Notes under the pieces: model-generated
Told to the model about the DNA's origin: nothing
Database searches by the model: none
Seen by the model: the letters and a program-made list of their open reading frames with translations, nothing else
IMG/VR virus record: IMGVR_UViG_3300021077_000115
Location: 110,064-174,063 of that record
Reading direction: 5' to 3' (one strand)
Length of the DNA stretch: 64,000 bases
Origin: a virus
In this document: piece by piece, positions 2,959 to 57,292 of the stretch
Layout: each line of letters begins with the position of its first letter
Position numbering within the stretch: position 1 is the first letter of the stretch
Translations under genes and position numbers: made by a program

Positions 2959-3172
2959 CGCCTTTCCAAATAGCTACATACCTTGAGAACCATACCACGC
3001 AAGTCTTGAACTAACATCACTAGCGCAGCGTTCTCTTGTTTGAGAAGGGTATTCTCCTTTTTTAGACTCTCAAGCTCTTCTCTTGAACCGCCAATATTTC
3101 TATACATATAAATCCCCTAGAGGTTAGGGCTGGGGAGCAACACCACGAAAACTCCCCAGCCCTTTCCAAGTC

Positions 3173-3670
3173 TTAGCCACAGCCAGTAGTGAGGCCGTCC
3201 CAACAGTTGGCAAGTTCCTTGCCAACATAGACGCGGATTGTCCAACCTCGCGGGTCGCCTTGACGTTCTGCCTTCAGCCCAAGCTCTACTCCAATTTCCG
3301 CAACTCGCGCATCCATCTCGTTATCACGCTTGGTCTCGCGTTCACTCAACTCGCGATTGCAAGTATGTTCAGCCAGCAGCGAAGAGTATGGTCCCATGGC
3401 CCAGAGTTCCCGAGCCAATATCAAGGACTTTCCTCTTGGTATCTTGCTTGCAAGCTGAATTCTTCGAATGAAATCCTGGCGTGCAGTTAGCTTCTTTGTA
3501 GCCATTATCTCATTTTCCTTACTAAATACTGCTTTCTTACCGTCCAACTTAGCGTCTCGCTGACACTCTAGTTTTCTCATCCACGGATATTCTTTTGCCC
3601 TTGAATAAACAGGACTTCCCTCTTGCAACCCTCTGTAATAGTACGTAACTGGAACTCTTGCAATTGTCAT
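3173..3670 (-). CDS. hypothetical protein
   Basis: 165-aa ORF preceded by TTTTACCAAAGAAGATATATATC-ATG initiation motif. Confidence 0.55.
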   Translation of the reverse strand: MTIARVPVTYYYRGLQEGSPVYSRAKEYPWMRKLECQRDAKLDGKKAVFSKENEIMATKKLTARQDFIRRIQLASKIPRGKSLILARELWAMGPYSSLLAEHTCNRELSERETKRDNEMDARVAEIGVELGLKAERQGDPRGWTIRVYVGKELANCWDGLTTGCG

Positions 3671-7052: not shown

Positions 7053-7179
7053 TATAGCCTCTGTATAAAATTACAGTGTAGGTGGACCCGTTACAACTCG
7101 AACGTAACTCTCATTCGGTAGCTAACCGAAAGCGCTCTTCCCTGAGCCGAGGCCCGAAACATTCATGTAGGTAAGTGTG

Positions 7180-7527
7180 GGTGGAAGTGTTCGGAATCGA
7201 ACCGAAGTCTTGCGATCCTCTCTTATTTCCATCATTCACGTGCGTAGCCACTGTATCCCCAATGGCTGAGTTCGTCAATTCGGTGGACGACCTATTCACC
7301 TGTTTGTCTCGTAAGCAACTTCGGTAACCCAAGTTACTTACCAGCCTTTGTGGTTGGCAATCCTGACCGCTACCAAGACAATCTTGCGGAGGACCGGCCG
7401 TGCTACTTATTAGGCAGCTGCGGCGTATGCATTATCATTCGCATTTAGAACGCCTAATGTTTGGGTGTATTAGGACCACCTACACGCAGGAAATATTTCA
7501 GATCCCAATCGAAAACCTTTCACTCCC
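7180..7527 (-). ncRNA. ssrA: tmRNA (ssrA)
   Basis: Minus-strand 5' end GGGAGTGAAAGGTTTTCGATTGGGATCTG resembles E. coli GGGGCUGAUUCUGGAUUCGACGGGAU. Tag frame at revcomp 7442..7407 reads GCG AAT GAT AAT GCA TAC GCC GCA GCT GCC TAA TAA = ANDNAYAAAA** (cf. ANDENYALAA). 3' end has T-arm TTCGG-TTCGATT-CCGAA, then CACTTCC-A-CC, which pairs with the 5' GGGAGTG. Confidence 0.8.
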
Positions 7528-7699: not shown

Positions 7700-7772
7700 A
7701 GCTACTGAAAGGAATTGAACCTTCAACATCTTGATTACAGGTCAAGTGCTCTGCCAATTGAGCTACAGTAGC
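7700..7772 (-). tRNA. tRNA-Thr (anticodon UGU)
   Basis: Cloverleaf read by eye: acceptor GCTACTG/CAGTAGC, D-arm GCTC-AATTGGCA-GAGC, anticodon arm CTTGA-CCTGTAA-TCAAG (C33 unusual), 5-nt variable loop, T-arm GAAGG-TTCAATT-CCTTT, discriminator T, CCA not encoded. Confidence 0.75.
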
Positions 7773-10802: not shown

Positions 10803-11138
10803 CTAGCCGGAACGCCCTTGGCGTTCAAAGTATGCCCGCAGAACTTCCATGCGGTAACGGAAAATGCACTGACGTATCATATCAGCGATATGATAAGTAA
10901 GCTTTTGCTTTATGCACAACGTTAACGCCAGCCTACGCTGGACGGCCTCAACCTCTTCGATAGTCCAAGTAAGCGAAGAGTCTTCTCCAAGCAGCTTCTC
11001 AATCTCTGGCCCAGGATTAATCTGCTTGATGCGAACCATCTCTAAGTAAGTTATTGCACGGGCCAATTGCACATCGGAACACCACACTGCCAACTCTCTT
11101 GCCGTACTATGCTCGGTTGCTGGGAGGTCGATTGACAT
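10803..11138 (-). CDS. hypothetical protein
   Basis: 111-aa ORF. Confidence 0.45.
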   Translation of the reverse strand: MSIDLPATEHSTARELAVWCSDVQLARAITYLEMVRIKQINPGPEIEKLLGEDSSLTWTIEEVEAVQRRLALTLCIKQKLTYHIADMIRQCIFRYRMEVLRAYFERQGRSG

Positions 11139-11224
11139 CGAACACTTCCGCCTTTCTTGCTAGCGCGCCAGCTCTGCTGGCCCTGCATCCTTTGGATGCG
11201 AACATGCGGATACGTTAAGAAACC

Positions 11225-11620
11225 TCAATGTGACGCCGACCAACCGGAACACTCATTAACAAACACACGGATTTCATATCCAATATCTTTGTTGAGGTCT
11301 TTCGTCAAACAGATATCACCAAGTCGGCTCGCACCAGTTACTCGATATAGTTCGCCTTGATATGTGCAGAACAACTTGTAATGCCCAATCTGATCGGTGA
11401 ACGCACTCTGCATAATTGCCGGCAACCGATGCAACATCATAAACCATCGAGCGTACTTCTCGTTTGGGTCTCGCTGATCATTCGGCTTGTTGCTTCCAAA
11501 TGATACAAAATCATCAACGTGTTGCCCTGGAGGCGGTAAGCATACCGGACACGTTAGACCTTCGTTGGTATCATAAAAATCTTGATAACCATGATCATAA
11601 CACCACTCTCTAGTAGTCAT
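11225..11620 (-). CDS. hypothetical protein
   Basis: 131-aa ORF. Confidence 0.45.
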   Translation of the reverse strand: MTTREWCYDHGYQDFYDTNEGLTCPVCLPPPGQHVDDFVSFGSNKPNDQRDPNEKYARWFMMLHRLPAIMQSAFTDQIGHYKLFCTYQGELYRVTGASRLGDICLTKDLNKDIGYEIRVFVNECSGWSASH

Positions 11621-20637: not shown

Positions 20638-20884
20638 CGAGTTAGGTTTGACTAAAACAATCTGGTGAGTGCGTCCAATCAAGAGCAGTGGCCCATGCCT
20701 CAACTACCTTTGGTAAAAACCAACTGTTCAGTATTGACAGCCGCACGTGATTGTGTTTGTTCGACAAACGTTAGTGGATGAAGAGCCGGATATCTGTTCA
20801 GTATCACAACACGCTAAGTGTTTGATATCTGGTAGATTGAAGTTCGCATAACACACGTTATGTAAACTCCGGCCACTCAGTCTT

Positions 20885-20953: not shown

Positions 20954-22114
20954 TCAGGCGCTCTCAACTGCTTTATTTTGCTCGTTGCAATACCAAATGA
21001 TGTCAGCCTCTGTCACACCCGCGTCAACAAGCTGGCGTTCGTACTCGGCATGAACCTCGCCTAGGTTCCGATAAGTTGCACAGTAAGCCCACTTGTAATC
21101 GCGCTCAGCCGTTGTTTCGTTCTCGCCATTCTTGATGGCAATCTGCTTGGCAGCTTTACCAGCCGCATGCGCTTGCCCGCGCTTGACTTCGCGCTCGGTC
21201 TTCTGGCCAACCGTCTTGGCTGTGCCGTTGGTTCCAACGAAACGGCGCGCTGCCTTACGCTCACGCCATGCTACCAATCGTTCGGCATCATCAGGAAAGG
21301 CCGGCAAACCTGATAGAGTCTTGTAGTGAGCCTTGCGTGACTCTCCAAGCCCAGCACGGAATGGAGGAGTTGTAGGATCAGGTAGGTGGATTGCTCGAAT
21401 CCACGGCATCTCGGTTGCGCCATTCGTACCCAAGGCCCATGGATCAACCGCGCAAGCTGGAATGCCAACTGCTGCGCCGGCTTCGCCGCTCATCATAACG
21501 GCTGCAATGTCCTTCCGAAGGTCACGGCCAGCTGGGCCGTGCAAGTTCTTGTCAACCGTGTAGGCACTCATGTGCGTGGTTGCGACTGCGAAGGCTGCGA
21601 GATACACAGCCCGGTATGCATCAGGGTCACTGACCGGCGTGAGCCAAGACTTGTCCAGCTTCGGGAGATAGACAGTCAGCCCATGGATCGGAGCTTCGTG
21701 CTCACCCGGTTCTTCGACCGCATCATCAGGCTCATCGGCCGCATCATCCAGCTCGTTGAGCGGAAGGGGCAACTGCTCCGGTTCATCGTCCGGATGTGAT
21801 TCAAGTACGGTGTTGAATGCTGTCCAGATTGGCTCGTAGCCGAGCATTCGAACCTGCTCCTGTAGGCTGTTGTGAGCAGCAAACTGTGTTCCCGCTACTG
21901 CTGAAACATTTCGGCCGAGCAGTTCGGTCGAGCAGATAAACCGGCGCGGGATGACAACTCCGCTTGCATCGGTTGCGCGTTGCACAGTCAAAGCTAAGTG
22001 TGCCGATGTGAGTTCCTTGGTAACTTCGGCCTCTGTGTCGGCGATTAGAGCTAAAGTCTCTGGGGAAAGAGCTATGTTTTGGTTGACGTTCTGGTGAGCG
22101 AACGGTCTTGCCAT
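20954..22114 (-). CDS. hypothetical protein (386 aa, higher GC than surroundings)
   Basis: Long ORF, acidic central linker, composition noticeably more GC-rich than neighbours. Confidence 0.55.
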   Translation of the reverse strand: MARPFAHQNVNQNIALSPETLALIADTEAEVTKELTSAHLALTVQRATDASGVVIPRRFICSTELLGRNVSAVAGTQFAAHNSLQEQVRMLGYEPIWTAFNTVLESHPDDEPEQLPLPLNELDDAADEPDDAVEEPGEHEAPIHGLTVYLPKLDKSWLTPVSDPDAYRAVYLAAFAVATTHMSAYTVDKNLHGPAGRDLRKDIAAVMMSGEAGAAVGIPACAVDPWALGTNGATEMPWIRAIHLPDPTTPPFRAGLGESRKAHYKTLSGLPAFPDDAERLVAWRERKAARRFVGTNGTAKTVGQKTEREVKRGQAHAAGKAAKQIAIKNGENETTAERDYKWAYCATYRNLGEVHAEYERQLVDAGVTEADIIWYCNEQNKAVESA

Positions 22115-22148
22115 GTGAGTTCTCCTGAGCGAATGGGCGAGTGAGGCC

Positions 22149-22187
22149 CTTTAAACGCCAAAAGCCCCACGGCTTGTGACCGTGGGG
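22149..22187 (-). promoter_or_regulatory. terminator hairpin + CTTTTGGCGTTTAAAG cassette (copy 7)
   Basis: CCCCACGG-loop-CCGTGGGG hairpin adjacent to the motif. Confidence 0.4.
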
Positions 22188-22204
22188 TTCCTAGCGTGCG
22201 TTAC

Positions 22205-22660
22205 TTACTCGGCTGACTTGCGGGTTCGGACTGGGAGGCCGATCTCGGTGGCCTTCGCATTGAAGCCGGCCCAGAACGCGGAGTAGTATGCTTCGCGGTT
22301 CAAGCCGAACTTACCACCGGTCTTGGTCTGCGGGTCGTATGCCAGGCCAGCAGCCTTAGTAGCAGCGCGGGCTGCCTTGAAACACTCGGTCTCCTTGGCT
22401 TTGGCCACGAAGTCAATGGGTTCCGACTTGGTAGCCGGAGCAGTAACCACTGGGGCCGCCTTGGCCTTGACGACTGCCGGCTTGGTAGCCGCAGCGGGCT
22501 TGACTTCTGAGCCGGCCAAGATATCCAGGATCATCTGGCGCGATCCAGAAACAACCTTGCCGTTGATTGTGACGCTAACCACGTCAGAAACTGGAGCGGT
22601 CAGGGTGGGGACGATGCTGTTGGCGAACGTGTTACGAGCGGTAGCTTTGCGAGTTGTCAT
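22205..22660 (-). CDS. hypothetical protein with Ala/Lys/Pro-rich linker
   Basis: 151 aa; last gene of the minus block. Confidence 0.5.
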   Translation of the reverse strand: MTTRKATARNTFANSIVPTLTAPVSDVVSVTINGKVVSGSRQMILDILAGSEVKPAAATKPAVVKAKAAPVVTAPATKSEPIDFVAKAKETECFKAARAATKAAGLAYDPQTKTGGKFGLNREAYYSAFWAGFNAKATEIGLPVRTRKSAE

Positions 22661-23150
22661 GGTGTTTTCTCCTAACGAAACGTGATGTTATTGAGCGAAA
22701 CGATTCAGGTAATTAGTAAAAACGAATCAAACGAACCGTCGTCTCACCAATTCAAATCCCTCGGAATCTCCGGTCGAAGAATCGGATATAGTGTCTCCGG
22801 CTGGCTAGGCGGATTGTAGGGGGTATGGGCTGGTTGGGTCAGGCGGCCGGCCGGGCCACCTCAAAAGGTACATCTGGCAGATTCAGCTCTGGCAGATTCA
22901 GATATGCACGCCCTGGCAGGCTTTTTAGTTACGCGCCGCCAATGTTCAAGCATACCACACCTGATTCATGTAGATTCTCATCCCCTAGTCTATCTTCTAT
23001 CTTCTTGTTCTGGTTTATGATAGAGTTCATTTCTATCCCTTCTATTCTTTATTCGGCCTCTTGGCTGATTTTTTCTAGGCTGAATTGGGATAGTTTGATT
23101 ATGACGATGGTGTGATTTATCTCACCTATTTTTACCAAAGAGTAAATATT
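22661..23150. promoter_or_regulatory. divergent-transcription switch region (candidate divergent promoters/origin)
   Basis: About 490 bp without credible ORFs between the minus and plus blocks. Direct repeat CTGGCAGATTCAG x2 (22873-22905), AT-rich pyrimidine tract 22960-23060, ends with TTTTTACCAAAGAGTAAATATTTT motif. Confidence 0.4.
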
Positions 23151-23486
23151 TTATGTTGAAAAGGAACTCGGTGAGTTGAGTACTCGATTGGTTAGTGGAG
23201 CTAAATGGTTCAAAGTGGAAGGAAGTGGTGTGAAATTCCAGGAAGAACTAACTCTTTTTTCTTAAAAGAGCTGGGTAATTTGATTTGTACAATATCTCCC
23301 AATAGATAATTTATCACCTATAACTACGTTATGAGGGAGATCTTAGAAATTAGATCTGATATAGAAAAATCCAATGATTTCGCGTAGTTGAATGTGGGTA
23401 TTGACTGAAAGCGGTGTAGAGGGGTAAGATGGGCAGATTTTTGATTGGAGAAATAGTTTAGATGAAATATTACAAGCGATTGAAGA

Positions 23487-23708
23487 ATGAGTATGCTTTC
23501 TTGCTTGGGGAAGAGGGTAAGGATTGCCGGAGTGGTACGGGTATTGGGATGTTTGATAGCGTTGCTAAAGGGGATACGTGAAATCGAGGGAGTAACGGAT
23601 GATTGGAGTGAGAAGGAGGCGTGCAAGTGGCACGATTACTTGTTGGCGTTTGAGGGATGGGTGGAGGCGATGCCGCGGATGGAGTTTTTTATAGGGAAGG
23701 GGAGATAA
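23487..23708 (+). CDS. hypothetical protein
   Basis: 73 aa within a purine-rich stretch. Confidence 0.3.
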   Translation: MSMLSCLGKRVRIAGVVRVLGCLIALLKGIREIEGVTDDWSEKEACKWHDYLLAFEGWVEAMPRMEFFIGKGR

Positions 23709-23712
23709 TTCG

Positions 23713-24054
23713 GTGTACTTACCATGTAAGCTACCGATTATATCATTGCTTGAGTGGAGTCCATTCGAGAATTCGGTATGGAGTTTCAGGCGGCCGATTA
23801 CGCGGTTGGGGGTGACGGAGAGTATTGAGCGTGGTGAATTGGAAGGGCGGCCGTACAGTTGGAAGGGTAAATGGAAGCGGATCGATCATATTCGGCGGAT
23901 AGCGTATTTGGTAGTGGATGATAATCATGAACTGCGTGGTTTATGTGTAGGTTTGAAGATGGCTTTGCGTAGAAGTAGGGATGTATTATCGGAACAAGAC
24001 TCTGTAATTAAGAAGTTGGCAATGTCTGGTGGGAAGTCCCAAATATCTTGTTGA
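23713..24054 (+). CDS. paralog family member 1 (C-terminal LSEQDSVIKKL...SGGKSQISC)
   Basis: Shares its C-terminal coiled-coil module with the next three ORFs. Confidence 0.5.
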   Translation: MYLPCKLPIISLLEWSPFENSVWSFRRPITRLGVTESIERGELEGRPYSWKGKWKRIDHIRRIAYLVVDDNHELRGLCVGLKMALRRSRDVLSEQDSVIKKLAMSGGKSQISC

Positions 24055-24352
24055 TATGTATACATCGATTGGTTTCATTATTCTGGGTATCTTTTTGGGC
24101 AATGTGTTCAAGAGATCTAAGAAGACCAAGCTAGAAGATATAGAAGAAGAGAAGAATAATTATTACGCAGAGTTAATTTCAGCTAAAAATGATATTTCTG
24201 AACTGAGAAATCAGAATTTAAATCTTCGCAAGATGATTCGTATCATGAAGATAGCTTTACTTCGTAGCAAATCTACGTTATCAGAGCAGGATGTAGTTAT
24301 TAGGAAATTGGTATCTGGTAGTTCTTCATCTGGAAAGACTCCATCATGTTGA
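24029..24352 (+). CDS. paralog family member 2 (N-terminal TM helix)
   Basis: C-terminus LSEQDVVIRKLVSGSSSSGKTPSC. Confidence 0.5.
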   Translation: MGSPKYLVDMYTSIGFIILGIFLGNVFKRSKKTKLEDIEEEKNNYYAELISAKNDISELRNQNLNLRKMIRIMKIALLRSKSTLSEQDVVIRKLVSGSSSSGKTPSC

Positions 24353-24837
24353 ATAGGAAGAAGAATTTAGGTTTACCTGAAGAACAAAGGATGGCCATTC
24401 TTGATCGGGCCATTGGGCGTGTCAACCATGGCGGCCATGTGGTGACCGCCATTCAGCAAGCGTTGGAGATACTAGCGAGGGGTGAGGCTGAGTTTTTACA
24501 TAAGCCAGCTTTACCTACGATAGAGTTAGAGATAAATGAGGCTAGGGCACAGCGTATTGGGTGGAGGCAAGAGGCCCGCCTTGAGGCGGAGATGAATAAG
24601 GCTGGTTGGGTTAGGAAATACAAAGCCGATAATGATGTTAGGTATTTCCAAGAACAAGTTAATGTTCTGAATCAAAATAGACATCTTATGCTCAAAGATA
24701 TTGGCACTCTGCAAGACTTGAATGATCAATTGCGGGAAGTTGTAGAGAAGCTGCGTTCTAAACTGGTTGAACAAGATGAAGTAATCGGGAAGTTGGCAAT
24801 TCTTCTGGCAAGAAGACTTCATTATGTTGAAGTTTGA
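24346..24837 (+). CDS. paralog family member 3
   Basis: C-terminus LRSKLVEQDEVIGKLAILLARRL. Confidence 0.5.
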   Translation: MLNRKKNLGLPEEQRMAILDRAIGRVNHGGHVVTAIQQALEILARGEAEFLHKPALPTIELEINEARAQRIGWRQEARLEAEMNKAGWVRKYKADNDVRYFQEQVNVLNQNRHLMLKDIGTLQDLNDQLREVVEKLRSKLVEQDEVIGKLAILLARRLHYVEV

Positions 24838-25285
24838 GAAGAGGAAGTTTGGAGTTCCGATTTATGGAAGGCCTATTTCATCTGGGATAGAGCCAACGCC
24901 GGCATTGACTTACATTAGGAGAACTCAGAGGATAAGAGAGAAAGATGAAATTGAGGCCAAGGAATTAGATAAAAGGCTGGCCAGAGTATTCGGAGAAGAA
25001 TCTTCTTGGGAGCAGCGTTTCAACTTCAAATATCCTCAAGATTCAATTATGATGAGTGATGATACTACCTTTTATAGTAGGTCTCCTACCCGTCGCGCGT
25101 TGGATGAGAGTTGGAGTGAAAGGGAAAGAGTTCGCCTTATAGGTTACTCTAATGATCTTGAATCTTTGAATATTGAATTGCGCTCTATGATAGATAAGCT
25201 TCGTGCCAAACTGGTTGAACAAGACGAAGTAATAGGAAAGTTGATTAGTGGTAATTCTTCTGGAAAGAAGGTATCTATATGTTGA
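24824..25285 (+). CDS. paralog family member 4
   Basis: C-terminus LRAKLVEQDEVIGKLISGNSSGKKVSIC. Confidence 0.5.
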   Translation: MLKFEKRKFGVPIYGRPISSGIEPTPALTYIRRTQRIREKDEIEAKELDKRLARVFGEESSWEQRFNFKYPQDSIMMSDDTTFYSRSPTRRALDESWSERERVRLIGYSNDLESLNIELRSMIDKLRAKLVEQDEVIGKLISGNSSGKKVSIC

Positions 25286-25593
25286 ATATATTTGATTTGG
25301 TTGCCAAGAGATTTAGGAGACCCAATAAAGAATCTTCTATTAAGGCATCTTCTAGTGTTCCTATTAGGGCGTCTTCTAATGTACCTATTAAGGAACCATC
25401 GCAATTGGAATTATTACGATGGATTATTGGGATACGGTTAGATACTGTATCAGTCAATCTTCGTTTAATTGACATGTTGCTTGAGAAGTTACCTGAGAAA
25501 CCTGACAATATGGATTCTGCGAGATCTAATATTGACAGTGCAATTGAGACATTGGAGTTGGTACTGGAAGATTTGAAGAATTACGGGTCCTAA
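25279..25593 (+). CDS. hypothetical protein
   Basis: 104 aa; internal repeat ASSSVPIRASSNVPIK. Confidence 0.45.
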   Translation: MLNIFDLVAKRFRRPNKESSIKASSSVPIRASSNVPIKEPSQLELLRWIIGIRLDTVSVNLRLIDMLLEKLPEKPDNMDSARSNIDSAIETLELVLEDLKNYGS

Positions 25594-25603
25594 GGAAGGT
25601 ATT

Positions 25604-25801
25604 ATGATGTCACCGCAACAAGAAGAGATACGTGAACGCCGAAGGACTCCGCACAATCCTATTCATATAGTTCCGCCGATTCCAACGCCGAGTATTCCTA
25701 CACCTGAGATACGGGCACCGAAGATAGATGATCTATTGGAAGAGATAGATGATTTACTGCGCAAGAAGTTGCCTGACAGGTATGATCCATGTAAGTGTTG
25801 A
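25604..25801 (+). CDS. hypothetical protein
   Basis: 65 aa, Pro-rich, DDLLEEIDDLL repeat. Confidence 0.4.
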   Translation: MMSPQQEEIRERRRTPHNPIHIVPPIPTPSIPTPEIRAPKIDDLLEEIDDLLRKKLPDRYDPCKC

Positions 25802-25987
25802 GGTTGAGTAATGGAACCTGTAAAAATCATCTTGAGCCATGATGAATTTGTTATAATCATGGGTAATATTGCATGCGGTAGGCTTGGGATTCCAGATAAA
25901 AGGGTTCATGCTGAATTGAATATCGTAAACAAGAGTGGTCGTGTTGAGGTTGTTGAGATTACGATATCGGATTGGGAAGGATGAATT

Positions 25988-26170
25988 ATGATAAAGCATT
26001 TACCTATCCACATTGGTGTAACAACATGTGCGGCAAATGATGGTAGTGGTAAGGAATGTCCTTGTTTCGTAAATGATCAAGGGTGGAAATGCCAGAATTA
26101 TTATACAGACCTTACGGTTGGCTCTAATGGAGTTGAGCGTTGTGAGGAATGTCTTAAAGAATTAGGTTGA
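25988..26170 (+). CDS. small Cys-rich protein
   Basis: 60 aa, 7 Cys. Confidence 0.35.
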   Translation: MIKHLPIHIGVTTCAANDGSGKECPCFVNDQGWKCQNYYTDLTVGSNGVERCEECLKELG

Positions 26171-26208
26171 TACATTATCTGAGTTATTTTTACCAAAGAG
26201 TATATTTT

Positions 26209-26436
26209 ATGAAAATTCAAGTTTTGACATTTCAGCGGTTAGAGACAACGATAGACGTACCTGATCCATGGGTGGCGATTGCTCTTGATATGCCATGGCC
26301 GGTTCCAGTGCAATGGAAGCGTTATTACGGTAATACACCTGAGGCGGCCAAGGCTAGTTTGATAAGTGATATCAGGCGATGGCTAGCTGAGCACATTAAT
26401 CCTAGTATTACTGAAGTTGAGATAACTAAAGGATAG
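26209..26436 (+). CDS. hypothetical protein
   Basis: ATG directly after TTTTTACCAAAGAGTATATTTT motif. Confidence 0.5.
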   Translation: MKIQVLTFQRLETTIDVPDPWVAIALDMPWPVPVQWKRYYGNTPEAAKASLISDIRRWLAEHINPSITEVEITKG

Positions 26437-26439
26437 AGA

Positions 26440-26802
26440 ATGTCATTTGAGAATATAGGTAAAGATGTGCTTAGTGATGCTTTCGAGGAGAAGGTGAAGG
26501 AGGCTCATGATTCCATCCTTAAGGCATTGAAGTTGGCGGCGGCGCGTAAAGAAGATTTGGCCAAAACATATTTGGTATGTGATTTCGCCAACGCCAGAAT
26601 AATGACAATCACCAAGGAGAACTTGGAGGGTTTGTTTGATAAGCTTGAAGAGATGTTGGAGGCAGCGAAAGATCTGGCAGCTATGCAGGGAGTTGATGGA
26701 TTTATGCGGATCTTATATTTCGATAATGATGAATGGGCAACGGCGTATTTTGCATTGCCAGTGCTGTATCTATCTGGTTCGCAGACGATAGGGAGCGCCT
26801 GA
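26440..26802 (+). CDS. hypothetical protein
   Basis: 120-aa ORF. Confidence 0.5.
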   Translation: MSFENIGKDVLSDAFEEKVKEAHDSILKALKLAAARKEDLAKTYLVCDFANARIMTITKENLEGLFDKLEEMLEAAKDLAAMQGVDGFMRILYFDNDEWATAYFALPVLYLSGSQTIGSA

Positions 26803-26886
26803 TATGTTTTGGTTTTTTTGTTCCCTTTTACTTGTTTGGGTAGTTCTGATGTTTAATGCCACTGAGGGCAACTACGGGGATCCATT

Positions 26887-27276
26887 TTGATGTTGAAGTT
26901 ACTAGAACTCGGGTTAGTGGTTGGAGTGATTACGGTGACAATCACGCGCGGGAGTATCTTCTCATTTTTTCGTAACTGGATGTCTTCGTATGGGGAATGG
27001 ATAGGTAATCTATTCTCCTGTCCATATTGTTTGGCGCATTGGTTGGCGCTGGTGATGGTTCTCTGGGGAAATCCTGGATTGATACATCATCCTTATGAAT
27101 TAGTGATCTCGGTATTCTCGGTGATTGGGATATCGATGGTATGTGGGTGGGTTGTCTACAAGAGCTACAAGGGGATAGTTGATGCGCCGGATTTGAGTGG
27201 GGAGAATGTGGTATTGAGGGAAGCGTTGGGGAAGGCGCGGGCGATGTTGGAGGAGATGAGGGGGAAGGTAGAATGA
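26887..27276 (+). CDS. membrane protein
   Basis: 3-4 TM helices. Confidence 0.5.
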   Translation: MMLKLLELGLVVGVITVTITRGSIFSFFRNWMSSYGEWIGNLFSCPYCLAHWLALVMVLWGNPGLIHHPYELVISVFSVIGISMVCGWVVYKSYKGIVDAPDLSGENVVLREALGKARAMLEEMRGKVE

Positions 27277-27618
27277 TTACGCGGCTTCTTTTGGTGGCAG
27301 TTCTTACATTGTTGTCCTGTGCATTGATTGGGGCAACTAGGAGTCAGGCAACATCTGCTTTATGGGTAAGCTTGGCCATTACATTGGTGTTGCCGAGATT
27401 TTCTAGTTCTGAGAAGCCGAGTGAATAATGGCTCAGTGGCAATTCAGGACAGACGTACACATTCCGATGTATTTGAAGGCATTGGATTGTCTTCGGGTAA
27501 TTACTCAGCGCCCAATAGGGAAGCGTCAGTTACCTTTACATGGGGTGATAGTTGATCTTGAGATTTGGTTGATTCAGAGGAATGGATTGATTTAGGGTTT
27601 TTACCAAAGGAATAGATT

Positions 27619-27873
27619 ATGTATTATGAGAGACGTCCATCGGCAATCAAGCGTGCGGCCATGGCTGTTTGGGGCTTCATTACTGGAGTCTTGGCGGTCG
27701 TAATCGTGCTGGTGGTAAATGCCATTGGGTTTGGGTTGGCGGTGGCCTTGCCGGTACAGTGGTTATGGAACCTGTGTTTTGCGGAAATCTTTACTAGTAT
27801 GCCGCAGGTAGGTTTTGTATCTGTTTTTGGGACGATAGTTATGTTGAAGATATTGAAGGGAGCGATATCGTAG
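27619..27873 (+). CDS. small membrane protein
   Basis: ATG directly after GGTTTTTACCAAAGGAATAGATT motif. Confidence 0.45.
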   Translation: MYYERRPSAIKRAAMAVWGFITGVLAVVIVLVVNAIGFGLAVALPVQWLWNLCFAEIFTSMPQVGFVSVFGTIVMLKILKGAIS

Positions 27874-27876
27874 TTT

Positions 27877-28131
27877 ATGGTAACTTGGTATCGTGACTTA
27901 ACTACACTGAAGGCGGATTTGATATCCGGCGGTATAGTTGGGTTGTTCTACGATTCACACAGCAAATTACGGCATATCGCTCACTACGAACCTTACAAGA
28001 AGTGCCCAACAAAGTCATTATGTGGGGAAGCTATCAACTTTAGTTCTACGGGAAGTCAAGATAGGATGTGTCCAAAGTGTCTATTATTGGTACATGGATT
28101 AGTTACAGAGAAGAGAAGCGGAAAAAGGTAG
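27877..28131 (+). CDS. hypothetical protein
   Basis: 84-aa ORF. Confidence 0.4.
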   Translation: MVTWYRDLTTLKADLISGGIVGLFYDSHSKLRHIAHYEPYKKCPTKSLCGEAINFSSTGSQDRMCPKCLLLVHGLVTEKRSGKR

Positions 28132-45493: not shown

Positions 45494-45718
45494 ATGACTA
45501 CAGAAAAAAAGTATGACAAACCATTATTGACACTAAACTGTGCTGATCATAAGTGGATAGTCCACGAGGGTCATTGGGTATCAGATAATGGAGAAATGAT
45601 ACTGATGACTGATGGAAATCCATCTCGTCAGATAGTTGGAAGTGGTAGAGTTGTGTTTGCTGTGCATTTGCTAGATATGTATCTAGCTATGGAAAAAGAG
45701 CTAAGAGCGCTAAAATGA
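45494..45718 (+). CDS. hypothetical protein
   Basis: 74-aa ORF. Confidence 0.4.
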   Translation: MTTEKKYDKPLLTLNCADHKWIVHEGHWVSDNGEMILMTDGNPSRQIVGSGRVVFAVHLLDMYLAMEKELRALK

Positions 45719-46626
45719 TTACTCGCGATGGAAAGCTTGAGATTTTTGAAAACTTCATTGTAGATGCTAGTCTACCAAAACATTTTGGAAAGAAACGCTC
45801 AGAGCTTTCCAAAATGGTAAATGCTTGGGTTGATTATCACAGAGATAGCGACAGCGAGTCCAAGAATGATGGTGATGTTGGGTTTATCCAGGCATGGAGA
45901 GAACCCGAAGAAATGGATATTCCTGGTCTTGTTAAGACCGAAGGTGACGGATTTATAATTGGGAATAGAAAATATCGCAATAAGAAGGTTTGGTCTTTCT
46001 TATTATTCCCGATATTATGGATGGTTGGATTATTCAGAAAAAAGAAGATGGCAAAGATTGAAGCAGCAAGAATGTCCGTAAAGGACTTCTTCGCCTCAAT
46101 AAAAAACTCTGCCAGAGAGCTTGAGATTGTTGCCGAGCGCGCTGCCGGATACGAGAAAGCCTTGATCAACGCCACCAAAGCCGGACAGGTTGCCCTTAAG
46201 GAGCGTCTGTTGAGTGGCTTGGATGCGCACCGCTCTGAGACCCAACTATTTGCTTCAGATCATAAGAAATACGTCACTGAAGAAGATGTGGTGAAATTTG
46301 TCAAGCAAGCCAAACGTGGATTGCGGCTTGATTGGATTAAGAACTTTACTAGAATTATTCCTAATGAAGTAATTTTTACCAAAGTAAGTCTTGATGAATT
46401 GACTGTGTTTGATAACTACGTTGTCATGCACTACGATCCAAACAAGAATTCTTGGGCGGAAACTCAAGAGGAAGCAAATAGGAGAAGAGACCCTATATTG
46501 TTTGGTGTAATTCTTGGTAGTAGAAAACTGTATTTCGTTGGTGATTGGGTTGATGATCTATGCGACCTGACACTTGAGCAGATAGCCGCTGAGCTTGGGC
46601 AGCAAGCCATAAAGGAAATTGTATAA
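45715..46626 (+). CDS. hypothetical protein
   Basis: 303 aa; internal TM segment. Confidence 0.5.
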   Translation: MITRDGKLEIFENFIVDASLPKHFGKKRSELSKMVNAWVDYHRDSDSESKNDGDVGFIQAWREPEEMDIPGLVKTEGDGFIIGNRKYRNKKVWSFLLFPILWMVGLFRKKKMAKIEAARMSVKDFFASIKNSARELEIVAERAAGYEKALINATKAGQVALKERLLSGLDAHRSETQLFASDHKKYVTEEDVVKFVKQAKRGLRLDWIKNFTRIIPNEVIFTKVSLDELTVFDNYVVMHYDPNKNSWAETQEEANRRRDPILFGVILGSRKLYFVGDWVDDLCDLTLEQIAAELGQQAIKEIV

Positions 46627-50190: not shown

Positions 50191-50603
50191 CAAGTTACTC
50201 CAACTTCTTTGAGATGCTGGACGCTATTGAAGCGAAGATGCAAGACCCACGTTGTAAGGAGGCTGGACTCACCCCTTACACAGGGGAGCCTCTACTAACG
50301 AGTATGGATCTTGGGTGGATCGTTGCGCTTCCCCTAAGCGAACGGGACGAAACATTCCAGTTCAGTGTGAGTCTACGTCAGATAAAGATTGACCGGCAAG
50401 ATCCTAGATGGGCCGATGCTTATGCCAGGCTCCAATCATTTACGACCCACTTCATTACATGTCCAAAGCATGGGGTGGTTAAAGGCATCCCGATACACAA
50501 GCTTCAAGGCAAGAAAGAGGGATCTGAGACGCTGGTATGCATACCTTGTGTGGCTGAGCGCATGGTGAATCCTGTTCGAACTTCAGCCAATCTCTCGATA
50601 TGA
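50169..50603 (+). CDS. hypothetical protein between tnpA and tnpB (C..H...C..C)
   Basis: 144-aa ORF. Confidence 0.4.
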   Translation: MVRKEPMTSYSNFFEMLDAIEAKMQDPRCKEAGLTPYTGEPLLTSMDLGWIVALPLSERDETFQFSVSLRQIKIDRQDPRWADAYARLQSFTTHFITCPKHGVVKGIPIHKLQGKKEGSETLVCIPCVAERMVNPVRTSANLSI

Positions 50604-52027
50604 AGAAATGTCGGTTCTTCATGCTGCATCCTGAGTGCAACCCTGGGAAGATTCAATCCCTGGAAGCTCTTCACGTCGAGTACATAGCTTATGTCCGGAT
50701 CTGCGTTCAGACGATGCTCAAAGCCCATAGGCTGACTTTGCCCCGCTCGGAGAAGCAGGACTTCTTCCCCAGGGCTGAGAAGCTTACGTCTCAGATTGAG
50801 AAAAACGCCCGCGACCATGCCATCCAGATTGTGAGCACTTGGGCTAAGTCGGTTTATGCCAGGAAGATCAAGACTTTCATCAGGTTATCTTTCAAAGAGG
50901 GGAACTTTGACGAGGACTTCTGTAAGCAGCTTTACACGGTGGGTAAGTACTTGATTCATGAGCCGAAGGAAACCGTGTCCCAGGAAGCAATTGATCTGTA
51001 TTGGTCTTGGCTCTCTGACCCAGAAGTAGTGGGGAACCCGCCTTCCATATCCAGTCGGATTCCAATGAGGATGTCGGAGAACACCTGCTCATTGGAAGAC
51101 CCAGAAGAGGCTACCCACGCGGATCTTTGGCTCAAGATCTCAACTTTGATTTCTCGGAAGCTTGCTTGGCTACCACTGGTTGGGAACCCATACGTCAAGA
51201 AGTCATCTGACGTAAGTAAGGGAATCCACGCTAGAAAAGACCGAAAGGGCCGTTGGCGGTTCGAAGCCGTTGATACCAAAGAGTGGTTGGTCTGCGAGGC
51301 CGAACCTGACTTACCCAGGATTGGAGTCGATGTAGGACTAAACGTGGTAGCGGCTACTTCGAGCGGACACGTGTTTGGGGCCTACCTAAAACCCAAGTTC
51401 AACAGGCTCTACGACAAGGTCAGGGAAGTCAGGGCGAACCGCCAAAGGCAGGATCTCAAGGAGAACAGTCCTAGGCTAGACCGACTAGAATCACGCCTCT
51501 CTGGCTTGACCAAGAGCTTCACGGGACGGGTATCCAATGAACTGATCCGAACGTACTCTGAGTCCGTCTTCGTCTTAGAAGACCTAGATCTTCGTGGTTG
51601 TCGTGGGCAAAAACGCTTCTGTTACAGGGAATTAGCTCATGCCCTTGAATCAAAGGCTCCAACTGAAAAGGTGAATCCGGCCTACAGTTCTCAGACATGC
51701 CCTTCGTGTGGGCATGTCTCTAGATACAATCGGGCTGGAATAGATTTCATCTGTCGCCAGTGCGGCAGGATTTCACATGCCGACGTGGTAGGAGGGATCA
51801 ATTTGCTCGGACGTTCCGAGAGCAAACAGATTGGCCTCGATGATCATCCGTCGGAAGTGAAGGGAGTGCTTGTGAGGCTATACTGGTCTAGGAGGAATCC
51901 GGATCAGGACTGTCCACAAGACTTCTTGAATAAATACGCGCCATTACCGTATGGCCGAAGGCTTACTACCAGGGGACTCTCTCGAAAGAGAAGCACTGGC
52001 ATAGCTTTTAATCAGGTAGCTGCTTGA
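50600..52027 (+). CDS. tnpB: TnpB (OrfB_IS605/RuvC-like RNA-guided nuclease family)
   Basis: RuvC-I IGVDVGLN, RuvC-II VFVLEDLDL, zinc finger CPSCGH...CRQCG, RuvC-III HADVVGGINLL. Confidence 0.8.
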   Translation: MKKCRFFMLHPECNPGKIQSLEALHVEYIAYVRICVQTMLKAHRLTLPRSEKQDFFPRAEKLTSQIEKNARDHAIQIVSTWAKSVYARKIKTFIRLSFKEGNFDEDFCKQLYTVGKYLIHEPKETVSQEAIDLYWSWLSDPEVVGNPPSISSRIPMRMSENTCSLEDPEEATHADLWLKISTLISRKLAWLPLVGNPYVKKSSDVSKGIHARKDRKGRWRFEAVDTKEWLVCEAEPDLPRIGVDVGLNVVAATSSGHVFGAYLKPKFNRLYDKVREVRANRQRQDLKENSPRLDRLESRLSGLTKSFTGRVSNELIRTYSESVFVLEDLDLRGCRGQKRFCYRELAHALESKAPTEKVNPAYSSQTCPSCGHVSRYNRAGIDFICRQCGRISHADVVGGINLLGRSESKQIGLDDHPSEVKGVLVRLYWSRRNPDQDCPQDFLNKYAPLPYGRRLTTRGLSRKRSTGIAFNQVAA

Positions 52028-55287: not shown

Positions 55288-56166
55288 ATGCCAACAAGAA
55301 TCATTGCATTAGGTACAGGCTCTGCCTTCACAATGAACAACTACCAAACTAACTTTGTCATCAAAAGAAATGGCAAGTATCTTTTGGTAGATTGTGGTGG
55401 CGATGTCAGATTTAGCCTTAGAGATCAGGGCCTGTCTGCCAAGGATATAGATGCTGTCTATATTTCACATGCTCACGCAGATCATGTGGGCGGCATGGAG
55501 TTCTTGGCATTCACACGCTACTTTACAAAGAGATCAATGGAAAATGCTAGGGCCCTCGCGCGAACTGTCGATCCTGAGCATTCCCCAGAGCCACTTCAAT
55601 TACCAGTGCTATTCTGTGAGCATGGGATGATTCGAACACTTTGGGATCACTCATTACGAGGAGGTCTCGAAGGACTTGAGGGAATCGACGCCAACATCGA
55701 CACCTATTTCAGGGTACATCCAGTGCCAAAAAACGGATCGTTCGAGTGGGAGGGCTTGAAGTTCGATATCGTTCAAAGCCTTCATGTCTCTGCTAAATAT
55801 AGTATTGTTGATTCATTCGGGCTGATGTTTACTGATGATATTGGGTATCGAATATTCATCACTACAGATGTTCAGTTCGCCCCAGAGACATCTATGAAAG
55901 CCTATTACAAAGAGGCTGATGTCATAATTCATGACTGCGAAACAGGATTCAAAAGCGGAGTTCACGCCCATTACGATCAGCTAAGGACATTGGATAATAG
56001 CATTAAGAATAAGATGCTTTTGGTTCACTACCAAGACAATGTCTTGGAAGATTGGAATGCGTGGGTGGACAAGGCCAACCAGGACGGCTTCGACGGATTC
56101 GTCAAGCCTGGGCCGATTTGGTCTGATGAACCACCTGACGTAATCGCAGCAACAACGAATGTTTGA
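55288..56166 (+). CDS. metallo-beta-lactamase-fold hydrolase (RNase Z / cyclic-nucleotide phosphodiesterase-like)
   Basis: ISHAHADHVGG (HxHxDH), downstream ITTDVQ and IIHDCE, then HAHYD metal-ligand-like residues. Confidence 0.6.
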   Translation: MPTRIIALGTGSAFTMNNYQTNFVIKRNGKYLLVDCGGDVRFSLRDQGLSAKDIDAVYISHAHADHVGGMEFLAFTRYFTKRSMENARALARTVDPEHSPEPLQLPVLFCEHGMIRTLWDHSLRGGLEGLEGIDANIDTYFRVHPVPKNGSFEWEGLKFDIVQSLHVSAKYSIVDSFGLMFTDDIGYRIFITTDVQFAPETSMKAYYKEADVIIHDCETGFKSGVHAHYDQLRTLDNSIKNKMLLVHYQDNVLEDWNAWVDKANQDGFDGFVKPGPIWSDEPPDVIAATTNV

Positions 56167-56242: not shown

Positions 56243-57292
56243 ATGAAGAAAATGAAGATTGGTGTTTTCATTGCTCGGCTACAACCGTTTCATCTTGCCC
56301 ACGTTGATATTGTAAAGTTGGCAATGAAAGATAACGATCATGTGGTTATAATTCTTGGCTCTGCATGTCAGGCTAAGACAATCAAGAATCCATGGACTAC
56401 TGACGAGCGCGAATTGATGATTCGCAAATGTCTTACGTCAGAAGGAAATACCCACATAAGTGTTGTTGCTGCTAAAGACTATTTCTATAATGACAACATG
56501 TGGCTATCTTCATTGCAGTCTGCATTGGGGTCTGTAAAGGTCAATGGCGTTGAAGTTGACCTTGATGATTGTGACGTAACGCTTTATGGTCATGATAAGG
56601 ATAGGTCAACATTCTATCTCCACTTATTTCCTAAGTGGAAGCTCAATGATGTTGGAAACTTACGCACAGAGTTTCCTAGGCTAGATGCAACGTTGGTCAG
56701 ATCATTTTTCTTCAAAGGTAATACGGCTGAGTTAAGAAAGTTTATACCACAACCTGTATATGATATGTTGCTATCAGAAATGGGAACTAGTACATACCAA
56801 AATCTTGTTGCAGAATTCGACCACATTACTGAGTATAGAGCGCTATGGGCCTCATCTCCGTATCCAGTTCAATTTGTGACAACCGATGCTCTTGTGATAA
56901 AGTCCGGACACGTACTAATGACGGTGCGTGGCGGATATCCAGGCAAAGGTCTAATCGCGCTACCTGGCGGATACTTGAATCCAGATGAGCGTATAGTTGA
57001 CGGATGCCTTCGTGAGTTAAAAGAAGAAACGCAAATCGCTGTTAGCAAAGATGAGTTGAGGAAGGCAATTGTTGATCAGAGGGTCTTCGATCATCCAGAA
57101 CGTTCTTTGCGCGGACGAACTATTACACATGGTTATTGCATAAATCTCGGTGCCGGAGACCTTCCAAAAGTAAAGCGCGGTGACGATGCCGCTGAAGCGT
57201 TTTGGATGCCACTTCGAGATGTTTATCGTAGAGAAGAAGATTTCTTCGAGGATCACTTCCACATCATATTCTTTTTTACTTCGAAATTTTAG
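56243..57292 (+). CDS. nadM: bifunctional NMN adenylyltransferase (NadM-type) / Nudix ADP-ribose pyrophosphatase
   Basis: N-terminal MKIGVFIARLQPFHLAHVDIV (archaeal-type NMNAT (H/T)xGH); C-terminal GGYLNPDERIVDGCLRELKEETQI Nudix box. Confidence 0.8.
   Translation: MKKMKIGVFIARLQPFHLAHVDIVKLAMKDNDHVVIILGSACQAKTIKNPWTTDERELMIRKCLTSEGNTHISVVAAKDYFYNDNMWLSSLQSALGSVKVNGVEVDLDDCDVTLYGHDKDRSTFYLHLFPKWKLNDVGNLRTEFPRLDATLVRSFFFKGNTAELRKFIPQPVYDMLLSEMGTSTYQNLVAEFDHITEYRALWASSPYPVQFVTTDALVIKSGHVLMTVRGGYPGKGLIALPGGYLNPDERIVDGCLRELKEETQIAVSKDELRKAIVDQRVFDHPERSLRGRTITHGYCINLGAGDLPKVKRGDDAAEAFWMPLRDVYRREEDFFEDHFHIIFFFTSKF

Follow-up and report, generated by a model that had tools for sequence, protein, structure and literature searches.

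The 64,000-nucleotide stretch of DNA analysed here (the window; positions 110,064 to 174,063 of IMG/VR virus record IMGVR_UViG_3300021077_000115), which looks like part of a huge phage, carries on its + strand a tandem array of four genes (m1 to m4, 23713-25285; Table 1) that encode a previously undescribed protein family of a familiar kind, in which a zipper module is combined with variable heads in an accessory array. The module is a long C-terminal helix forming a leucine zipper of six heptads. The Ser/Gly/Lys…Cys tail that follows it is mainly not a protein feature; from its nucleotide sequence it is best read as a dual-coded translation-initiation region of the next gene, duplicated together with the zipper. 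The array is eroding in this phage: one member has been deleted, one is a chimera without its membrane anchor (m1), and one is frameshifted (m3).

A leucine-zipper module shared by four tandem genes

In a six-frame search of the 64-kb window, a profile hidden Markov model (HMM) of the C-terminal module matched m1 to m4 at E values of 2e-14 to 5e-23, far beyond chance, and nothing else below E 0.6. The coordinates and the profile search agree with the original prediction, made from the DNA letters, that four open reading frames (ORFs) end in a common C-terminal module, and the wider search for members that it had proposed yielded no other in the window. Column analysis of an alignment of 39 family proteins revealed a heptad pattern over about six heptads, with L, L, L, L, Q and L at successive d positions (the Gln in 39 of 39 proteins) and N (24/39), N/C, I/L/V, L and I at the a positions; many members have a Cys at one of the latter. 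The nearly invariant EQDxVIxKL spans the last two heptads, and this conserved end motif turns E (c), D (e) and K (c) outward and places a hydrophobic V at g. In the best phase the mean hydrophobic fraction across aligned columns is 0.64 at d, 0.52 at a and 0.21 at the other positions, as in a leucine zipper. The AlphaFold2 model of P0004, the most complete relative, is all-helical, with a 64-residue helix (predicted local distance difference test, pLDDT, 96-99) and a disordered nine-residue tail.

Scans of the four members against Pfam (no family at E ≤ 0.01) and PHROGs gave no match, a PDB sequence-profile search returned coiled coils only (E ≥ 0.12), and Foldseek with the AlphaFold model returned nothing (best E 9). 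The sole database resemblances are to generic coiled coils (ZapB, bZIP and SYNZIP), all below threshold: bZIP_1 (PF00170) in 3 of 14 members (best E 0.0018, threshold not reached, and not among the matches listed for m4) and ZapB (PF06005) in 5 of 14 (best E 0.019, gathering score not reached). Similar to the zippers of GCN4 and other bZIP proteins, in which Asn at a favours parallel in-register dimers, the phage family has Leu at successive d positions over about six heptads and beta-branched residues or Leu together with Asn at a. Unlike them, it has a Gln at one d position, flanked by E/D, heads unrelated to transcription factors, and no basic region, the columns before the zipper being variable with a conserved K/E-E-N and no basic cluster.

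The member m2 consists of an N-terminal transmembrane (TM) helix (MYTSIGFIILGIFLGNVF; Kyte-Doolittle mean 1.81 over 17 residues), the basic KRSKKTK, the zipper and the tail SGSSSSGKTPSC, in that order, and the same ATG opens its ortholog in the relative L001 (P0007). Two related TM members, P0022 and P0036, reach 2.9 on the same scale. The zipper and tail of m2 are predicted by the positive-inside rule to be cytoplasmic, because KRSKKTK follows the TM helix. Both m3 and m4 align end to end with the 192-amino-acid (aa) P0004 and, because each retains different segments of it (ILA-G-AEF-H and GW in m3; GIEPTPAL-IRR-Q in m4), they are full-length paralogues that have lost complementary parts. At the DNA level these two are 78% identical over 78 nt, with no nucleotide similarity upstream. 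Across the family the heads sort into recognisable subfamilies.

The predicted combination of a constant coiled-coil module with differing heads, one of them bearing a TM helix (the hydrophobic N-terminal helix of m2), stands overall, but not for m1, whose head was once part of a neighbouring gene (see below), and the claim that the N-terminal halves are unrelated fails for m3 and m4. Nor are these strictly the first genes of the rightward block, as had been supposed: a small ORF split by a frameshift (23462-23708) precedes m1, and gene calls in L003-L007 and L011 show it split in the same way.

Selection on the zipper

The proportion of synonymous differences between paralogues (pS) is 0.45-0.95, saturated or nearly so, and that of nonsynonymous differences (pN) is 0.2-0.5, with pN below pS in every pair. 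Because the synonymous sites of the paralogues are saturated, the duplications are old. In 16 distinct gene copies, the E, Q, D, V and I codons do not vary at their first two positions (entropy 0), against 0.7-1.75 bits at the third; because the invariant residues vary freely at the third codon position, the zipper is under purifying selection at the protein level. The original prediction had allowed that the shared region might merely reflect recent duplication without selection, with a ratio of nonsynonymous to synonymous divergence (dN/dS) near 1; saturated pS and lower pN speak otherwise. The family evolves faster than the neighbouring genes, with dN/dS relative to the L001 orthologs of about 0.26 for m4 and 0.65 for m2, versus 0.09 for a downstream gene encoding a 65-aa protein and 0.13 for the DUF1360 gene.

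A tail that doubles as the start of the next gene

Family genes are joined to the genes that follow by 7-nt overlaps (Table 1), which read A-TGT-TGA (or end in TAG or TAA) in the family gene and ATG-TTG-A in the next. Because the overlap contains the next ATG, the last codon of the family gene is forced to be TGN, i.e. Cys or Trp. According to the junction tables, all 8 genes with a 7-nt overlap end in Cys, whereas the 7 genes without it end in Cys (three), Ser (three) or Asn (one, with a TGATG overlap). The three non-overlap Cys genes (m1/P0022, L1a and the A-type member of L011) read TCTTGTTGA, one substitution from TCATGTTGA. Over the whole family, 23 of 39 proteins end in Cys and 16 (41%) end in S, N, G, A or V. 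Further upstream, the G-K/R-K codons of the tail (GGAAAGAAGG or GGAAGGAAGG) are located 7-10 nt ahead of the next ATG and form the Shine-Dalgarno (SD) sequence of the gene that it opens. The tail of the L1e subfamily, ILPKDRKC (L001), is the literal translation of TTTTACCAAAGGATAGGAAATGTTGA, which contains a recurrent gene-start motif (TTTTACCAAAGGA…ATG; see below), located 8-12 nt ahead of many start codons in these phages.

Starts of the form ATGTTGA are found in 4 of 147 candidate genes in the window (greedy ORF set), namely m3, m4, the gene after m4 and the DUF1360 gene; the first three follow family members, and the DUF1360 gene follows one in L001. Of the 88 ORFs in a greedy set of + strand candidates from the window, only four end in Cys: three family members and the 65-aa protein (CKC). 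RNA folding at four junctions was no better than in shuffled controls (z -0.8 to +0.7). As in coupled ATGA and TGATG overlaps, the stop codon overlaps the next start and the SD sequence lies inside the upstream coding sequence; unlike these, the array overlap is 7 nt long (ATGTTGA or ATGTTAG), has been propagated with the module and is nearly confined to the family. The locus exemplifies a misleading protein motif, in which the signals that start the next gene (ribosome-binding site and initiation codon) are read in another frame, and motif-based annotation of overlapping phage genes can mislead likewise.

Deletion, fusion and frameshift in the array

Comparison by blastn with the relative L011 accounts for the composition of m1. 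Window positions 21001-23916 match L011 244-3165 with 99.8% identity and 23917-28000 match L011 4923-9006 with 100% identity, and 1757 bp of L011 (3166-4922) are absent between window positions 23916 and 23917, at a junction with a 3-nt microhomology (GTG) that lies outside the zipper. The head of m1 is not family sequence: it consists of the opening 68 codons of a 131-aa gene that L011 carries undamaged (2962-3357), whereas the zipper and tail are the last 45 codons of the membrane-anchored P0022 (L011 4821-5060). The extra stretch of L011 contains the rest of the 131-aa gene, a 114-aa and a 104-aa gene, a fifth family member and the TM helix of P0022. Because genes that L011 has and the window lacks are shared by the distant L001 (orthologs of the 114-aa gene and of the fifth family member), the window form is the one with the deletion. 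Judged from this alignment, m1 is an in-frame fusion made by a very recent 1757-bp deletion, its head an accident rather than an evolved feature. Apart from the window, five assemblies (L003-L007) have the 113-aa chimera among their gene calls. The DGNHR motif of the 131-aa donor gene recalls ParB-like domains, but Pfam gave no match and no such assignment is claimed.

The fifth family member, of A-type (L011 4368-4813, + strand), has an in-frame TAG within its zipper (…ELRAL, stop, YRSLIEKQRDKIVEQDKVIEKLVSGNSSGKTPMSC, stop), which is probably a nonsense mutation. Relatives of the phage encode proteins with RF-1/PCRF domains (L001 14411-14830; L008 15560-16075). Comparison of near-identical strains at this locus catches gene birth together with decay, a microhomology deletion having given rise to an in-frame chimera.

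The m3 protein lacks the tail, as the original prediction stated, but its DNA does not: three-frame translation finds the ancestral tail encoded in the -1 frame, and the stretch from KL to the tail has 7 nt fewer in m3 than in m4. The tail is intact in an m3-like relative (P0017, …GKDRSIC). The frameshift is not an assembly error, because the same 163-aa form is called in six independent samples or runs (L003-L007 and L011). The SD-like, purine-rich run and the ATG of m4 lie within the cryptic-tail DNA, which may have been preserved for them; a very recent frameshift would account for its retention equally well. Programmed -1 frameshifting in m3 is not supported: inspection of the sequence shows no slippery site of the form X XXY YYZ before 24798, and the 7-nt difference suffices.

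Distribution of the family and its conserved position

When 1.84 billion representative proteins were searched exhaustively with the profile, 38 family representatives scored E ≤ 0.001. No member was found in 185,579 species genomes of GTDB or in the collection of deposited phage records, scanning IMG/VR with m3, with m4 and with an alignment gave no relative, a scan of JGI metagenomes found none beyond one contig already known, and a literature search on coiled-coil paralogues of jumbo phages turned up nothing relevant. Because the GTDB species genomes contain no relative, nothing points to a prophage or host copy. On these searches, the family appears to be confined to one clade of uncultivated huge phages, where it provides a defined unit in a genome type that is almost wholly unannotated.

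The relatives examined were L001, L008, L011, L012, L014 and an ENA contig (gene calls, no DNA). In six of six distinct relatives the array lies to the right of a divergent, leftward pair of genes encoding proteins of about 385 aa and about 150 aa (386 aa and 151 aa in the window), a pair that adjoins the array in every relative; in the examined relatives the DUF1360 gene lies further downstream. The number of copies per phage is one in L014, two in L008, three in L012, four in L001 and five in L011. One of the four L001 copies is displaced, directly before the DUF1360 gene, a position occupied there by the family member at 10866-11327. In the window, the DUF1360 gene at 26890 keeps the family-type start ATGTTGAAG, though no family member precedes it (26803-26889). 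The sequences suggest that a family member before the DUF1360 gene has been lost or replaced in the window lineage.

Proposed role and alternative explanations

The array may comprise lineage-specific small accessory proteins of one uncultivated huge-phage clade. Its zipper module would oligomerise into parallel dimers, possibly mixed between paralogues, and so join different heads, and the TM-bearing members would tether partners at the cytoplasmic face of the membrane. Chaining by 7-nt overlaps would give coupled, roughly stoichiometric translation; coupled overlapping genes often yield fixed protein ratios, frequently of partners. The genes lie between two copies of the recurrent motif and may be co-transcribed. 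The erosion and the raised dN/dS are in keeping with accessory genes under changing pressure. The descriptive part of this account (the family, its periodicity and selection, dual coding, the deletion and the frameshift) is given with high confidence. Taken whole, a selected zipper family with a dual-coded tail, whose members are co-translated partners and in some cases membrane-anchored, is the best explanation and is held with moderate confidence; its oligomer and membrane-tether part is tentative and rather doubtful. Dimerisation, mixing of paralogues, membrane tethering, co-transcription and a role in infection are what we infer from the sequences.

The host-takeover module of SPO1 and the early clusters of T4 likewise consist of small tandem genes with a divergent control region, lineage-specific and subject to gain, loss and truncation, but the genes of the phage array, unlike theirs, are paralogues that share one predicted oligomerisation module. 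FtsB, FtsL, DivIC and the Rz i-spanins, the dimers of the last being additionally joined by intermolecular disulfides, have a TM helix followed by a coiled coil, as do m2, P0022 and P0036; unlike these proteins, the phage zipper is predicted to be cytoplasmic and most members are soluble. No member has a PHROG match of the i-spanin type, and the neighbours of the array are small genes of unknown function, the Pup-like peptide described below and the DUF1360 protein, with no lysis cassette.

Several points weigh against the proposed role. One long helix might itself bind to a target in the host, and the invariant exposed E, D and K together with the hydrophobic V at g suggest a shared partner outside the family instead of simple self-pairing. 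Lesions affect three of the five ancestral members and m2 has a dN/dS of 0.65, so at least some members are dispensable. With respect to dual coding, three genes end in Cys without a 7-nt overlap and the unrelated neighbour ends in CKC, so that a use of the terminal Cys at the protein level has to be considered: with the flexible linker it could be a functional handle for a disulfide joining both chains of a parallel dimer, for a metal or for a modification, much as the original prediction proposed. This is unlikely. The 23 family proteins that end in Cys, the three genes that keep TGT-TGA without overlapping the next ATG, the rarity of Cys ends in the window and the Cys at a positions of many zippers are in its favour, but 16 proteins do without a terminal Cys, the overlap forces Cys or Trp by nucleotides in every gene that has it, and the three exceptions are one substitution from the overlap sequence. 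Moreover, m3 has lost the tail in a form present in six assemblies, and the Cys tail of m2 would lie in the cytoplasm, a reducing location. That the repeat is mainly a nucleic-acid element, either a recombination cassette or an RNA control, with an incidental peptide, is less probable still. The repeat does take in the first codons of the next gene (ATGTTGAA, ML-K/N), heads have been exchanged or lost at the locus, and the similarity of m3 and m4 stops upstream of the repeat; however, the amino acids of the core are invariant while third positions are free, the sole observed rearrangement used a microhomology outside the module, and junction RNA folds like shuffled controls. For the zipper core this reading is largely refuted, and for the last 30 nt or so it merges with dual coding.

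Small phage proteins that inhibit cell division exist, and anchored members with soluble partners might imitate proteins of the FtsB/FtsL/DivIC type to block or redirect division, to judge from the layout of m2, P0022 and P0036 (a short N-terminus, one TM helix and the zipper) and from ZapB being the commonest weak Pfam similarity. We consider this improbable: neither m2 nor any other member matches a DivIC, FtsB or FtsL model at any threshold used, the ZapB matches are of a subthreshold kind typical of coiled coils, the zippers of FtsB and FtsL are periplasmic whereas charge distribution predicts a cytoplasmic one here, and the window phage has lost one of two anchors yet persists in samples. 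It is comparably improbable that the array is evolutionary debris drifting to loss, with no present function in this phage, although one member, interrupted by a TAG in frame, is missing from the window, another is a chimera and a third is frameshifted, the ORF upstream of the array is split too, and dN/dS is higher in the family than in its neighbours. The zipper has been kept at saturated synonymous divergence and at the same position in six or more distinct phages, both m2 and m4 are undamaged, and dN/dS is below 1, all of which argues against debris.

A Pup-like neighbour

The gene of the 65-aa protein is directly 3' of the last family member, via an ATGTTAG overlap, in L008, L012 and L014. 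Its dN/dS of 0.09 marks it as strongly constrained. An invariant PKIDDLLxEIDDLL in this protein resembles the Mpa-docking helix of Pup, the segment that we take to be the part docking on the coiled coil of the Mpa ATPase. Pup is the sole Pfam family found for the 65-aa protein (E 0.05-1.4); scores of 10.3, 14.9 and 13.2 bits in three orthologs do not reach the PF05639 gathering score of 27, and all Pup similarity scores are below threshold (E 0.05-1.8). The Pup chain of PDB entry 3m91 (Pup-Mpa coiled-coil complex) is among the top PDB matches, and among word-sharing candidates from a database of 5.8 billion proteins, annotated Pups are the next best after the protein's own family. The Pup of a gammaproteobacterial metagenome-assembled genome (MAG) has IDDLLGEIDEVL where the phage proteins have IDDLLGEIDDLL; 10 of 12 residues are identical to true Pup, and hhalign gives a probability of 68% over 18 columns, a match over too few residues to carry significance. 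The phage orthologs lack the C-terminal half of Pup together with the GGQ/GGE end and have KKxPERYDPCKC or a close variant instead.

By this resemblance, the 65-aa protein could be a phage Pup decoy. If true, the Pup link would imply phage interference with bacterial pupylation; a literature search on phage Pup mimics turned up no report of it. It is the most promising thread at the locus, and is offered as a lead only. The zipper genes and the Pup-like gene belong to one operon-like unit. A scheme in which the end of the zipper dimer docks DDLLxEIDDLL, much as the coiled coil of the Mpa/ARC proteasomal ATPase docks Pup, the two forming a tag-receptor pair or serving as decoys for a host pupylation-proteasome system, while the terminal Cys and the CKC share a metal or disulfide site, would be a long shot.

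A recurrent motif upstream of the array and elsewhere

The motif TTTTTACCAAAGAGTA, present in two exact copies (Table 1), has 7 matches in the window at ≤3 mismatches versus 0.68 expected. Its core TTTTACCAAAG is found upstream of the array in the window, L001, L008, L012 and L014 (every relative with readable DNA), and directly after the Pup-like gene in L008, L012 and L014. Copies of TTTTACCAAAG(G/A)A in the window are at 23130, 26188, 27599, 18233 and 46374 on the + strand and at 20718, 15042, 8201 and 3693 on the - strand, usually along the gene direction, and most end 7-13 nt upstream of an ATG. The extended core may serve as a promoter, leader or initiation signal specific to the phage. 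A scan of the window for sigma-70 promoters and terminators gave counts equal to the level of shuffled sequence.

Other features of the window

Table 1. Coordinates of the array, its signals and neighbours, and other features (window positions unless a relative is named).
Feature	Position	Strand	Remarks
m1	23713-24054	+	GTG start; 113-aa ORF
m1 head	23713-23916	+	
m1 zipper and tail	23917-24054	+	
m2	24056-24352	+	ORF list opens at GTG 24029; core zipper 24221-24310
m2/m3 junction, 7-nt overlap	24346-24352	+	ATGTTGA
m3	24346-24837	+	163 aa, frameshifted end (…KLAILLARRLHYVEV, stop); core zipper 24706-24795
Cryptic ancestral m3 tail	24798-24830	+	NSSGKKTSLC, stop; -1 frame
m3 cryptic tail/m4 junction, 7-nt overlap	24824-24830	+	
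m4	24824-25285	+	Best-conserved member; core zipper 25154-25243; tail SGNSSGKKVSIC
m4/104-aa gene junction, 7-nt overlap	25279-25285	+	
104-aa gene	25279-25593	+	No zipper module; joined to m4 by the overlap
65-aa protein	25604-25801	+	Pup-like motif (PKIDDLLEEIDDLLRKK); ends CKC
Orthologs of the 65-aa protein	L001 10673-10864; L008 10588-10752; L012 2379-2543; L014 5426-5590		54-65 aa
Motif TTTTTACCAAAGAGTA, 5' of array	23129-23144	+	Candidate promoter or gene-start signal
Motif TTTTTACCAAAGAGTA, second exact copy	26187-26202	+	
Split ORF 5' of m1	23462-23581 and 23487-23708	+	Small; split by frameshift; ortholog intact, 86 aa, L001 8186-8446
151-aa protein	22205-22660	-	Ala/Lys/Pro-rich centre (KPAAATKPAVVKAKAAPVV)
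386-aa protein	20954-22114	-	No family match
tmRNA	7179-7527	-	Rfam 96 bits; tag peptide ANDNAYAAAA
tRNA-Thr (TGT)	7700-7772	-	Adjoins tmRNA
Second transposase-like protein	45715-46626	+	phrog_10081
TnpB/Cas12f-like protein	50600-52027	+	PF07282 E 2e-13, OrfB_IS605
Apyc1-like metallo-beta-lactamase	55288-56166	+	PF23023 E 3e-31
NMNAT-Nudix fusion protein	56243-57292	+	Adjoins Apyc1-like gene

Two strand-polarised gene blocks diverge at about 22.7-23.7 kb of the window, where the GC skew changes sign. Megablast against deposited phages found no close DNA relative, and tblastn with the syntenic 386-aa protein found none among them; a contig of 391,957 bp carries a protein identical to m4. Close relatives of the TnpB-like protein are absent from the GTDB genomes, which gives no clue to the host. 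Other genes of the window encode PhoH, a DHH phosphoesterase and an endonuclease VII-like protein. The Apyc1-like protein is a candidate anti-Pycsar/CBASS nuclease for cyclic nucleotides.

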